Source: Promethearchaeota archaeon (GTDB lineage: Archaea > Asgardarchaeota > Odinarchaeia > Odinarchaeales > JBHLKK01). Taken from it: 7,061 nucleotides of DNA. A program made the translations under genes and the position numbers. The stretch is from positions 1-7,061 of the forward strand of contig JBHLPL010000102.1 in NCBI GenBank assembly GCA_048939465.1, read 5' to 3'. Below, piece after piece: positions 1 through 6,148 of this stretch. Position 1 is the first letter of the stretch; every line of letters starts with the position of its first letter. Under the pieces are notes generated by a model. It worked only from the letters and a program-made list of their open reading frames with translations, searched no databases and was not told the DNA's origin.

Positions 1-532
1 AAAGGAATTTGCTTACAACGAGCAATTGGTCAGATGGATAAAACTTGCGAGAGAAAGGGTAAGGTTCCAAGGTCTGCCAGCAAGGGTCTGCTGGTTGGGC
101 CTAGGTGAAAGAGCAAAATTCGGAAGAATTATCAATGATATGGTGAGAAAAAAAGAATTAAAAGCACCTATTGTCATTGGTAGAGACCACCTGGACTCGG
201 GCTCAGTTGCATCACCTAATCGTGAGACTGAAGGAATGATTGATGGAAGTGATGCCATAGCCGATTGGCCGATCCTGAATGCGCTGCTCAATGCTGTTTC
301 TGGTGCAACGTGGGTATCGGTCCATCATGGTGGTGGTGTCGGGATAGGTTACTCGATACACGCTGGAATGGTTATTGTAGCAGACGGGACAGATGAAGCA
401 GAAGAGAAACTTGAAAGGGTGTTGACATCAGATCCATGGAGTGGAGTGATTCGACACGTAGACGCTGGATACAAGGAAGCGATGATGACAGCCAAGAAAT
501 TCAAACTTAAAATTCCGATGGCCAAAGAATAA
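1..532 (+). CDS. hutU: Urocanate hydratase (urocanase), C-terminal part; gene begins upstream of the window
   Basis: Frame is open from position 2 ([33 protein letters not shown]), so the TTG at 26 is internal. Urocanase C-terminal motifs: [87 protein letters not shown]. Stop TAA at 530-532, followed by in-frame TAG TAA. Confidence 0.98.
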
Positions 533-592
533 TAGTAACGGGAATGAGCCTTTCCCCCTAGTTTACCCAGATACAGCTTCAGGATCCCCATT

Positions 593-600
593 AAGGAGGA
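593..600 (+). promoter_or_regulatory. Shine-Dalgarno site of hutH
   Basis: AAGGAGGA at 593-600, 9 nt before the ATG at 610. Confidence 0.8.
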
Positions 601-609
601 GCGAGCCGA

Positions 610-2148
610 ATGAATGAAGTAGTAATCACTCTTCAAGGGTTAGGGTTGGATGAAGTTATAGACATTGCACGCAATCTGGCAAAGGTCGATTTATCGGAAG
701 AGGTTCTAGAAAGAGTTGAAAGAGCTCGAAAGACGATTGAGAGAGCGATTTCTGAGGAAGAAATCATCTATGGGGTTAACACGGGTTTTGGGGGACTGAG
801 TGACAGGATTATACCAAGAAAAGAAGTGGAAAAACTCCAAGTGAATCTCATTAGAAGCCATTCTGCTGGAGTGGGAAAACTGCTTGATAAAGAAGTCGTA
901 AGAGCGACAATGCTTCTTAGGATCAATGCATTGGCAAGAGGTTATTCAGGCGTTTCACTCGATGTTCTTGAGATACTTGTTAAGATGTTAAATAAGCAGA
1001 TACATCCTTTGGTTCCGGAGAAAGGCTCTGTTGGGGCTAGTGGCGATCTTGCCCCTTTGGCCCATATCGCACTTGCCATGATCGGAGAGGGACAGGCTGA
1101 GATCGGGGGCACGGTGATGCCCTCTGAGAAAGCTTTGAAGTCTGCTAAGCTAAACCCTGTTAGACTGGGTCCAAAGGAAGGACTAGCACTCATTAATGGG
1201 TCCCAATTAATTAACGCCATTGGAGCATTAACTGTCTTCGATTCTGAGAACATATTGAAGGCTTCTCAGATAGCAACGGCTTTGTCTTTGGAGGCACTTA
1301 ATGGGCGGATAGATCCCTTTGATGAAAGGATTCATAGCGTCAGACCCTACAAAGGACAGATTTCAGTGGCCAAAAATATTACGAAACTTGTCAAAAACAG
1401 CCAAATCATCTCTGAACAGGTCGGCAAGAAAGTTCAGGATGCCTACTCATTGAGATGTTCTCCTCAAATCATCGGAGCTTCAAAGGATACTATCGACTAC
1501 GTTAGGGGGATAGTTGAAGTTGAAATCAATTCTGCCACAGATAACCCGCTGGTTTTTCCGGGAAATGGAGATATTTTGTCTGGAGGTAACTTTCACGGTC
1601 AGCCGATAGCAATGGCGATGGATTTCCTATCTATCGCACTGTGCAATATCGGCAACATATGCGAGCGCAGGGTTGCCAGGCTAATCGATGACAAATTGAG
1701 TGGAGGGTTGCCGCCATTCTTGGTGAAACCCAAGGGTGAGGAAGGCTTAAGCAGCGGATTCATGACGGCCCAGGCAACAGCTGCATCATTAGCTGCCGAA
1801 AACAGATGCTTATCCGCACCTTCGAGTGTTAATTCGATCTCAACAAACGCCAATCAAGAGGACCTTGTCAGCATGGGACTCACAGCAGCTAGAAAAGCCA
1901 AGGACATCCTGGGAAACACTGAGTACATAATCGCAATCGAACTCCTGTGTGCAGCACAAGGACTTGAATTCAGAGGTTTAGACAAGGCGGGAATAGGGAC
2001 ATCGAAGGCATATCGCCTTATTAGAGAAGTTGCGCCTTCCCTAGAGGAAGATACACAGCTTACGCCCCTTATAGAGAATGCAGCAGAGCTCATCCACAGC
2101 GGCAAATTAGTAGATTCCGTTGAGAGAAAAATAGGTAAACTCGACTAA
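610..2148 (+). CDS. hutH: Histidine ammonia-lyase (histidase), 512 aa
   Basis: MIO-forming motif GSVGASGDLAPLAH; catalytic Tyr loop IYGVNTGFG; histidine-specific selectivity motif LIRSHSAG (SH, not the FL of PAL or HL/HQ of TAL); KEGLALING, QDAYSLRC, NSATDNP, GGNFHGQP, NQED.VSM (Glu as in HAL). Directly downstream of hutU. Confidence 0.97.
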   Translation: MNEVVITLQGLGLDEVIDIARNLAKVDLSEEVLERVERARKTIERAISEEEIIYGVNTGFGGLSDRIIPRKEVEKLQVNLIRSHSAGVGKLLDKEVVRATMLLRINALARGYSGVSLDVLEILVKMLNKQIHPLVPEKGSVGASGDLAPLAHIALAMIGEGQAEIGGTVMPSEKALKSAKLNPVRLGPKEGLALINGSQLINAIGALTVFDSENILKASQIATALSLEALNGRIDPFDERIHSVRPYKGQISVAKNITKLVKNSQIISEQVGKKVQDAYSLRCSPQIIGASKDTIDYVRGIVEVEINSATDNPLVFPGNGDILSGGNFHGQPIAMAMDFLSIALCNIGNICERRVARLIDDKLSGGLPPFLVKPKGEEGLSSGFMTAQATAASLAAENRCLSAPSSVNSISTNANQEDLVSMGLTAARKAKDILGNTEYIIAIELLCAAQGLEFRGLDKAGIGTSKAYRLIREVAPSLEEDTQLTPLIENAAELIHSGKLVDSVERKIGKLD

Positions 2149-4812: not shown

Positions 4813-4861
4813 TTCTGGGAAGATTTTCAGAACATATTTCCTTTGCATCCGAACGTTAAAT

Positions 4862-4866
4862 GGAGG
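4862..4866 (+). promoter_or_regulatory. Shine-Dalgarno site of the hutI-like gene
   Basis: GGAGG at 4862-4866, 7 nt before the ATG at 4874. Confidence 0.75.
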
Positions 4867-4873
4867 AAGAATC

Positions 4874-6148
4874 ATGGGAAAGGAGGCCGATTTCGCAATA
4901 ATTAATGCAAAAGAGCTGGTGACTCTGAAGGACTCAAGTGACAAACCGAGGGTAAAAGATGCAATGAACGATCTGGGTATTGTCCAGGAAGGGGCCATTG
5001 CAGTGAAGGGTGAAAGAATAGTAGCTGTTGGACCTACGGACGAAGTACTGAGCGATCTTGAAAAAGGTTTCGAGACTATAGATGCTTCCAACAAGTTGGT
5101 GACGCCAGGACTAATCGATCCACATGTACACTTAGTCTTCGCAGGTACGAGAGAGCATGAACTCGAGGCAATGGCTGTAAAGGGTGTACCCTATTTAGAG
5201 ATTAAGGCTCGAGGAGGAGGAATGCCAACATCTCTCAAGAAAACGGCTGAGACAAGTTTTCAGGAGCAGCTCAGAATAACTTCCCGAATACTCGACAAAA
5301 TGCTCATTCACGGTACCACGACAATCGAGGCGAAAAGCGGCTATGAGATGACTTTCCAGGGTGAAATAAGGCAGCTAGAGATAATCCAGACTCTCAACAA
5401 GGCTCACCCTATCGATCTGGTTCCGACCTTCTGCGCGCAGGGGATTCCTCCAGAATATGAGAATAGAGTGGATGATCTAACAGATGAGATTGTAGAGAAG
5501 TGGATACCAGAAATAGCCAGAAGAGGCCTGGCCGAATATGTGGACGTGTTCTGCGAAAAGGGCTACTTCAACCTTGAGCAAACAAGGAGAATATTGGAAG
5601 CGGGAAGAGAATACGGCATGAAGCTGAGAAACCACTGTGATTGGCTTGCTTACAGCGGCGGTGCCAGACTGGCTGCAGATATCGGAGGAGTGGTCTCGGC
5701 GGATCATCTCATTTTCACTCCAATGGAGGATGTTGAGGCATTGAGGGAACAAGGCACGATAATAGTATTCTTGCCAACTTCTCCATTCTGTTATGTAGGG
5801 AAATACGCTAACGCCCGTGGGATCATTGAAAGGGGGGCGGCAGTTGCTTTGGCAACAGACGTGAGCGCAGCCAACCTCTGCGAGTCAATGCAGATGATGA
5901 TGACGCTTGCTGTTCTTCGGATGAAGATGACAACTGCAGAGGCTCTCACTGCTGCCACGATTAATGCAGCCCACTCAATAGAACGAGGGCATGAAGTAGG
6001 ATCACTGGAGACAGGAAAGAAAGCAGATATTGTTATATTTGACGCTCCAAATCACAAGTTCTTCGCGTACAATTATGGAATCAATCTCGCGGAAAAAGTC
6101 TTCAAGAATGGAAAGTTGGTAGCGGAAAGTGGAAGACGAGTAAGCTAA
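4874..6148 (+). CDS. hutI: Imidazolonepropionase (HutI)-family amidohydrolase with a non-canonical substrate pocket, 424 aa
   Basis: HutI scaffold: LVTPGLIDPHVHLVFAGTREHE (HxH metal motif plus Arg), GVPYLEI..RGGG, HGTTTIEAKSGY, DVFCEKGYF, SADHL, ALATD, EAL.AATINAA, GSLETGKKAD, YNYGIN..EKVFKNG. Start set at 4874 (SD present; matches the HutI N-terminus as recalled) rather than 4805. Family assignment is strong; activity is uncertain. Confidence 0.88.
   Translation: MGKEADFAIINAKELVTLKDSSDKPRVKDAMNDLGIVQEGAIAVKGERIVAVGPTDEVLSDLEKGFETIDASNKLVTPGLIDPHVHLVFAGTREHELEAMAVKGVPYLEIKARGGGMPTSLKKTAETSFQEQLRITSRILDKMLIHGTTTIEAKSGYEMTFQGEIRQLEIIQTLNKAHPIDLVPTFCAQGIPPEYENRVDDLTDEIVEKWIPEIARRGLAEYVDVFCEKGYFNLEQTRRILEAGREYGMKLRNHCDWLAYSGGARLAADIGGVVSADHLIFTPMEDVEALREQGTIIVFLPTSPFCYVGKYANARGIIERGAAVALATDVSAANLCESMQMMMTLAVLRMKMTTAEALTAATINAAHSIERGHEVGSLETGKKADIVIFDAPNHKFFAYNYGINLAEKVFKNGKLVAESGRRVS

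Follow-up and report, generated by a model that had tools for sequence, protein, structure and literature searches.

How is histidine degradation completed in an archaeon whose histidine utilization (hut) genes come with none of the enzymes known for the last step? The question is raised by a window of 7,061 bases that makes up the entire contig C36 (JBHLPL010000102.1) of G000, a metagenome-assembled genome (MAG) of a Promethearchaeota archaeon (1.96 Mb, 152 contigs, 91% complete). Three endings of the textbook pathway of histidine degradation are known. Besides hutU, hutH and a variant of hutI (hutI*), the window encodes a paralogue of formylmethanofuran:tetrahydromethanopterin formyltransferase (Ftr), here named FtrH, and a paralogue of glutamine synthetase (GS), here named GSl. 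We propose, with a probability of roughly 0.6, that this is an archaeal hut cluster in which FtrH serves as a dedicated transferase of the one-carbon (C1) unit onto tetrahydromethanopterin (H4MPT). Judged from sequence, the locus likely represents a Hut pathway variant with a new enzyme activity.

A hut cluster with no known last-step enzyme

Genes were identified by open reading frame (ORF) calling and hidden Markov model (HMM) scans with Pfam and with NCBIfam/TIGR models at curated cut-offs. Every gene of the initial annotation (hutU, hutH, an ftr-family gene, a GS-family gene and hutI) was recovered where it had been placed. The histidine ammonia-lyase HutH (610-2148, plus strand; TIGR01225 654 bits, cut-off 539; PF00221 654 bits) and the imidazolonepropionase variant HutI* (4874-6148, plus strand; TIGR01224 385 bits, cut-off 298) both pass their equivalog cut-offs. 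The longest hutI* ORF begins at 4805, and the true start is likely the ATG at 4874, which is preceded by GGAGG. The window opens within the urocanate hydratase gene hutU and holds the C-terminal 176 residues of its product (2-532, plus strand; PF17392 257 bits; positions 374-545 of TIGR01228 as a 299-bit fragment). The N-terminal two thirds lie on contig C40 (5734-6888; TIGR01228 positions 3-363), and it is with this part, at 595 bits against a cut-off of 375, plus the window fragment that HutU passes. Because hutU is split over two contig ends, C40 and C36 must adjoin in the genome, separated by a small gap in the assembly. In the same-genus genome G298, an intact hutU (923 bits) lies immediately upstream of hutH.

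Searches for the known endings came back negative. Neither the FTCD_N nor the FTCD_C domain was found in the G000 genome, in the window or in the 5.7 kb of C40 that precede hutU, and an HMM search of all 1.96 Mb of this 91% complete genome found no FGase. The best hutF match in G000 reaches 60 bits, far below the cut-off of 413. The only candidate for hutG in the genome is a single arginase-fold protein with 155 bits against a cut-off of 229; it is an agmatinase (TIGR01230 272 bits, cut-off 174) encoded on contig C11 beside moeA. Upstream of hutU, C40 carries only genes for a bPH-domain protein, a macro-domain protein, a class I LysRS, a CDP-alcohol phosphatidyltransferase and a PfkB kinase. 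The claim that this cluster operates without HutG, HutF or FTCD is supported by HMM searches in the window, in the adjoining C40 and in the rest of the 91% complete genome. In the other ten FtrH-bearing Asgard genomes, no known last-step enzyme passes its cut-off, and the searches gave just a weak FGase-like match in G397 that lies away from the hut contigs. The FtrH-bearing genomes have one arginase-fold gene each, distant from the hut genes.

FtrH forms a clade of its own within the Ftr family

FtrH (2349-3254, minus strand, GTG start) has the two-lobe architecture of Ftr, with both Pfam domains above cut-off (PF01913 125 bits, PF02741 141 bits). It scores below both NCBIfam Ftr cut-offs (TIGR03119 264.4 versus 292.6; NF002554 282.3 versus 297), and the canonical Ftr of G000, encoded beside mtd, scores 418 and 433 bits on the same two models. 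FtrH is 42% identical to this canonical copy and 35% identical to a third Ftr encoded on contig C2. The third copy (C2:22006-22893; positions 1495-2382 of locus L002) scores 360 bits with NF002554 and 271 bits with TIGR03119, sits between a phosphoserine-phosphatase-like gene and an aminotransferase gene, and belongs to a separate, well-supported Ftr clade.

Among 5.8 billion proteins searched, 989 FtrH homologues were found. The best 120 are 70-84% identical, are all annotated as plain Ftr and originate from Asgard archaea and Bathyarchaeota, plus one sequence labelled Njordarchaeota. The closest relatives of the window proteins carry the labels Promethearchaeota, Hodarchaeota and Heimdallarchaeota. 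Across Asgard archaea and Bathyarchaeota, clade members share 67-84% identity and collapse into one representative at 50% clustering. In 400 representative Asgard genomes the identities fall from 67% directly to 45%, which places FtrH in 11 genomes of five genera. A maximum-likelihood tree of 80 sequences recovers FtrH as monophyletic with very short internal branches and a Shimodaira-Hasegawa-like approximate likelihood ratio test (SH-aLRT) support of 99. Both other Ftr paralogues of G000 fall outside, the canonical one within another clade (97). This agrees with the expectation of the initial annotation that hut-linked copies form their own clade in genomes that keep a canonical ftr and mch, both of which G000 has. 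FtrH is neither the sole ftr product of its genome, which has three copies, nor grouped with canonical Ftr.

FtrH E246, within the motif CVYEV, aligns with the catalytic Glu245 of Methanopyrus kandleri Ftr and is invariant across the clade; along with this glutamate, FtrH keeps 28 positions that are near-invariant across the Ftr family. About 30 clade-conserved positions differ from canonical Ftr, including the basic residues K43, R47, R95, K96, K103 and K201 as well as P52, W89, Y101, Q127 and M170. Compared with a related bacterial Ftr clade described below, 17 conserved positions are specific to FtrH, among them W89, Y101, T128, F202, T278 and T285.

The AlphaFold model of FtrH (predicted local distance difference test score, pLDDT, 76.5) matches the Ftr structure 1M5S at Z 26.3 over 270 residues. 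Against FTCD (2PFD_A) it reaches Z 5.4 over 116 residues, at rank 43 among dozens of equal-scoring ferredoxin-like folds, and FtrH has no match to PF07837 (FTCD_N). The initial annotation had argued from a fold shared by Ftr and FTCD. The model is compatible with this argument, but a Z of 5.4 is at the generic ferredoxin-like level, weak and not a sign of specific kinship.

Both intact Ftr domains and the intact catalytic glutamate would also be expected if FtrH were an ordinary formylmethanofuran:H4MPT isoenzyme that raises C1 flux, with the formimino group removed by HutI* acting twice, by GSl or by an unrecognized hydrolase. Many of the signature residues are moreover common to the bacterial clade, a member of which is the sole Ftr in the bacterial genome G402. 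Such an isoenzyme would, however, be added to genomes that already have one or two other Ftr proteins, including the canonical one beside mtd, and it would leave the scores below the Ftr equivalog cut-offs and the 17 positions distinct from the bacterial clade unaccounted for. Nor would it be expected to exclude FTCD or to be tied more tightly to hutI* than hutU is, as is seen below. We consider this explanation improbable.

ftrH, GSl and hutI* are inherited as a triad

The ten other Asgard genomes with FtrH all have ftrH adjoining GSl, followed by hutI* wherever the contig extends that far, and hutH is nearby in nine. A hutU gene is present in 9 of the 11 FtrH-bearing Asgard genomes. Bathyarchaeota contigs carry hutU-hutI-GSl adjoining ftrH. 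A profile built from the clade located 80 metagenome loci; a scan of contigs with the single protein gave three. Loci were counted as testable for GSl with at least 600 nucleotides of upstream sequence and for hutI with at least 2.2 kb; GSl adjoins ftrH in 58 of 62, and 38 of 39 carry the matching hutI variant. The linkage of ftrH to hut genes is far beyond chance. The initial annotation had staked its proposal on such linkage in relatives, and the ten Asgard genomes and the metagenome loci uphold it; the opposite outcome, a known last-step gene together with no conserved ftr-hut linkage, fails on both counts, since no such gene was found and the linkage is kept.

The divergent arrangement of ftrH and GSl in the window is seen again in most loci. 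Six metagenome loci are co-directional, and three of these (L062, L075 and L076) form an ftrH-GSl-hutI-hutU-hutH operon. ORF clustering of 27 large loci recovered FtrH in 27, HutI* in 26, GSl in 26, hutU in 11 and hutH in seven, with no other recurrent pathway gene. The single large exception is the chromosome of the Bathyarchaeota genome G400, on which GSl-hutI lies 570 kb from ftrH, and the three genes still co-occur. The conserved unit is thus the triad of ftrH, GSl and hutI*, which hutU and hutH often but not always adjoin. The initial annotation under-weighted the two obligate partners of FtrH, the GS paralogue and a HutI with a changed pocket.

Genes for ABCE1, Asparaginase_2, CGI-121, THUMP and PRTase proteins near the triad were considered as additional pathway members and were rejected as lineage-specific housekeeping synteny only. 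Asparaginase_2 (an Ntn-hydrolase) and ABCE1 are encoded 2-4 kb from the triad in loci L012, L013, L014, L038, L040, L088, L092 and L101. Loci labelled Bathyarchaeota and loci of the Asgard family f4 both show this neighbourhood, which is probably shared synteny, with an amidase role in the pathway possible.

FtrH and FTCD exclude each other among the sampled Asgard genomes

Of the 400 Asgard genomes, 283 encode hutU. Displacement was assessed in a sample of 57 Asgard genomes, 54 of them with hutU. FTCD_N occurs in 0 of the 11 FtrH genomes versus 38 of the 46 without FtrH. Counted by genus, FTCD is found in 0 of 5 versus 21 of 26 (Fisher p = 0.0015, a test that relatedness inflates, kin not being independent). 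The switch can be seen within one family, where FTCD abuts hutU in genus g26 and the sister genus g27 has the triad instead. Two lineages with neither FTCD nor FtrH have a different gene beside hutU: one of the arginase fold in G287, and an FGase-like one in G297. FTCD-type clusters contain no GS, and their HutI is about 45% identical to the HutI of the triad. Among the Asgard genomes sampled, FtrH and FTCD are mutually exclusive, a case of non-orthologous displacement.

Many FTCD homologues of Asgard archaea consist of the transferase alone and lack the cyclodeaminase domain; their ORFs of about 300-336 amino acids often lie directly beside hutU (G101:C36:83309-83836, G015, G207). Others, in families f31, f30 and f21, are fused proteins of 510-580 amino acids.

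The absence of a folate pathway was considered as the reason for the choice between the two systems and was discarded. Although 8 of the 11 FtrH genomes yielded no FolD, it is also missing in some FTCD-type genomes, and its presence gives no clean division between the two types.

HutI* has a remodelled pocket and GSl intact catalytic motifs

HutI* aligns over its full length with HutI from Bacillus subtilis (PDB: 2BB0) and keeps the metal ligands His80, His82, His249 and Asp324 as well as Arg89, Tyr102 and Tyr152 (B. subtilis numbering). Four changes run through the whole clade, whose members are 70-86% identical: AHA to AQG (His185 to Gln), HxDE to HxDW, GYGL to GYEM and NPN to SAA. They are present in every HutI* examined and in none of nine Asgard HutI proteins from FTCD- or HutG-type clusters. 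These changes fit either a different product, for example a formyl compound, or simple lineage drift.

GSl (3481-4812, plus strand) is a paralogue of glutamine synthetase type I-alpha (TIGR00653 461 bits, cut-off 429). In 12 orthologues the GS motifs DGSS, ExE, GGY, HHE, xE, GxGxHxHxS, NSYKRLVPGxEAP, NRSxxxRxP and RxExR are kept, leaving the catalytic, metal, glutamate and ammonium-site motifs intact, and only seven positions differ from other Asgard GS. The invariant Gln preceding the E220-equivalent is changed to Lys. GSl forms its own clade on a long stem with a support of 100, and it travels with FtrH, never with FTCD. A canonical second GS encoded on contig C61 of G000 (507 bits) is 38% identical to it. 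The apparent replacement of Asn264 by Tyr, relative to Bacillus-type GS, was dismissed as a signal, the canonical GS of G000 also being without that Asn. GSl is the only GS-family protein found in G002 (97% complete; C1:227219-228517) and in G400 (C1:530676-531998), so in these genomes it must double as the housekeeping glutamine synthetase. The simplest reading is that GSl is a genuine glutamine synthetase that would use the glutamate and ammonia released by the pathway.

The proposed route

In the route that we propose, HutH and HutU would convert histidine to 4-imidazolone-5-propionate and HutI* would open the ring. FtrH, in place of FTCD, HutG or HutF plus FGase, would then remove the C1 unit from the glutamate nitrogen. 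It would transfer the formimino or formyl group of N-formimino- or N-formyl-L-glutamate to N5 of H4MPT and release glutamate, which GSl would probably convert together with ammonia to glutamine. The C1 unit would enter the H4MPT pool via Mch, with oxidation through canonical Ftr and Fwd or reduction through Mtd as its possible fates. The suggestion of the initial annotation that FtrH is an H4MPT analogue of FTCD gains sequence-level support from each of the comparative tests, through the separate clade, the hut linkage, the missing last-step enzymes and the exclusion of FTCD.

Several points weigh against this route. No cyclodeaminase, as the formimino variant would need, was found in G000, and we know of no Ftr-family enzyme with an amino-acid donor. 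GSl is nearly always present, although the model needs no glutamine synthetase. His185 and the Glu or Gln at the +3 position of HxD(E/Q), kept in every canonical HutI examined, are lost in HutI*, and with such pocket changes its product may not be formiminoglutamate. Five of the basic residues of FtrH (K43, R47, R95, K96 and K201) are also present in all 59 members of the bacterial Ftr clade that were examined. A basic patch common to both is ancestral to the wider clade and no proof of a glutamate site; a companion claim about a basic cleft in hut-linked copies is thereby corrected, these five residues and most of the signature being found in the bacterial clade as well. Of the 26 large loci with the whole triad, 15 have no hutU within 10 kb, and G400 has the triad with a truncated hutU and no hutH, so the substrate of the triad need not always come from histidine. 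Finally, we infer the reaction, its donor (formimino or formyl), its acceptor and the role of GSl from sequence.

Several of these observations would be accommodated if the triad handled another cyclic amidine or imidazolone, or worked in a biosynthetic direction, and had hutU and hutH nearby because of a shared intermediate or shared regulation. The triad, not the full pathway, is the conserved unit, with hutU and hutH within 10 kb in only the 11 and seven of the 27 large loci counted above; G400 does without an intact pathway; the HutI* pocket is systematically remodelled; and the closest relatives of FtrH reside in bacterial islands for H4MPT cofactor and C1 metabolism and not in hut clusters. 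Yet HutI* passes the HutI equivalog cut-off and retains both the metal ligands and the carboxylate-binding residues, hutU is encoded in nine of the 11 FtrH-bearing Asgard genomes, and the co-directional operons join all five genes. The exclusion of FTCD is hard to explain otherwise, and the triad comes with no other conserved pathway gene. A different substrate is therefore unlikely in our view, and the transfer of a histidine-derived C1 unit by FtrH is the reading that we prefer.

H4MPT as the proposed acceptor

The genomes that encode FtrH appear equipped to use C1 units on H4MPT. G000 keeps the canonical ftr beside mtd, the third ftr, mch and fwdA. Mch was found in 10 of 13 FtrH genomes, the remaining three being fragmentary. 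In G298, mch (C2:53313-54248) and hutU share a contig, with mch about 8 kb upstream. FwdA was found in all seven FtrH genomes tested (G000 plus six).

The presence of FwdA in all seven would also suit an enzyme that passes the C1 unit from a glutamate derivative to methanofuran or another amine, with formylmethanofuran then yielding CO2 through Fwd and reduced ferredoxin, and which of the two coenzyme sites has been re-tooled cannot be read from the sequence alone. Formyl transfer from amine to amine is, however, without precedent in the Ftr family, whose conserved chemistry runs to or from the pterin N5, and Mch co-occurs with FtrH and is encoded near the cluster in G298. We regard methanofuran as a highly improbable acceptor compared with H4MPT.

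Bacterial relatives and an N-formylglutamate variant

Apart from the protein P0121, the nearest relatives of FtrH in the tree are stand-alone bacterial Ftr proteins (the P0122 group) that are 46-48% identical to it. Their hosts are Planctomycetota and Pseudomonadota, in which they are encoded in islands for H4MPT and formaldehyde oxidation (L043, L125, L126, L157 and L158) together with pabB-like, GHMP kinase, mtdB, mch, citG and fae genes and never with hut genes. An FGase-family gene lies beside the bacterial paralogue in three of the five loci. FtrH and the bacterial clade share T17, K43, R47, P52, D80, R95, K96, G97, M170, K201 and G289, and both are far from FhcD of Methylorubrum extorquens (129-132 bits). 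The 6.7 Mb bacterial MAG G402 encodes Fae, MtdB, Mch, FGase and this protein as its sole Ftr, and FhcA/FwdA were not found in it. No close homologue of the G402 Ftr was detected in a sample of 151 genomes. A pairing of the Ftr-like protein with FGase may replace the Fhc complex in these bacteria.

This context hints at a more specific version of the route, in which FtrH and its bacterial sister clade would both be N-formyl-L-glutamate:H4MPT formyltransferases that treat free glutamate as a minimal methanofuran. HutI*, perhaps with the GS, would deliver the formyl intermediate, and with a formyl rather than a formimino group Mch alone would complete entry into the C1 pool. In some methylotroph-like bacteria, the reaction would run in reverse, from formyl-H4MPT to N-formylglutamate and on to formate with FGase, bypassing Fhc. 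The hint comes from the FGase neighbours in three of five loci and from G402, which combines a sole Ftr and FGase with no FhcA/FwdA found. We offer this version tentatively and consider it unlikely.

Flanking and intergenic features

Between the divergent ftrH and GSl lies a region (3255-3480) with AT-rich, TATA-like stretches that presumably holds promoters for both directions. A promoter and terminator scan of the bacterial type gave nothing above shuffled expectation.

The window ends with the N-terminal part of a PQQ-like beta-propeller repeat protein (6517-7059, plus strand; PF13360 60 bits). The gene is probably outside the pathway; its position adjoining hutI is conserved in the same genus alone (L007). 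The protein has a hydrophobic N-terminus, and related repeat proteins are encoded on at least four other G000 contigs (C1, C131, C48 and C79).

HutH of genera g26 and g27 (L010 6800-8635, L015, L016, L022, L023) matches the HutH of the window in two pieces. The pieces have overlapping query ranges and are separated by a gap of about 100-280 nucleotides, which suggests an insertion or a local duplication within HutH. DNA of the window is present in mangrove and sediment metagenomes; none of the matches listed is an RNA dataset.

Relation to known systems and implications

The closest functional parallel to FtrH is the transferase of FTCD (EC 2.1.2.5), which occupies the same pathway position and moves a C1 unit to N5 of a reduced pterin with release of glutamate, as we propose for FtrH. 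The two belong to unrelated sequence families, and their acceptors are tetrahydrofolate and presumably H4MPT, respectively. FtrH also comes with its own HutI variant and GS, both of which FTCD-type clusters are without. The closest structural parallel is Ftr itself (EC 2.3.1.101; PDB: 1FTR, 2FHJ), with the same fold, both Pfam domains and a full-length alignment at E = 5.5e-69. Here the difference lies in the context, histidine catabolism as opposed to the C1 pathway, and in the donor, which would be a glutamate derivative instead of formylmethanofuran. HutG, and HutF plus N-formylglutamate amidohydrolase, solve the same problem after HutI by hydrolysis, in which the C1 unit is lost as formamide or formate. 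Unlike these routes, FtrH would keep it on a carrier.

In full-text literature searches, neither formimino-H4MPT nor a hut cluster containing an Ftr paralogue was found described. A preprint on the Asgard archaeon MK-D1 draws histidine via formyl-glutamate towards folate, and one on Methanoperedens reports a normal hutHGUI operon.

Automatic annotation labels the several hundred FtrH-type proteins plain Ftr, so that methanogenesis-type C1 metabolism is inferred too often and a complete hut pathway goes unnoticed. If our reading is correct, the triad would constitute a fourth ending of histidine degradation and the first that gives its carbon to H4MPT, and FtrH would be the first member of the Ftr family to use a donor besides formylmethanofuran or methylofuran. 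The hosts of the triad are Asgard (Heimdall- and Hod-type) and Bathyarchaeota lineages from sediments, whose fermentation of amino acids and Wood-Ljungdahl genes of the H4MPT type figure centrally in current models of sediment carbon flow and of the metabolism of the archaeal ancestor of eukaryotes. In these organisms, the route would connect the breakdown of amino acids directly with the C1 and acetyl-CoA pathway.

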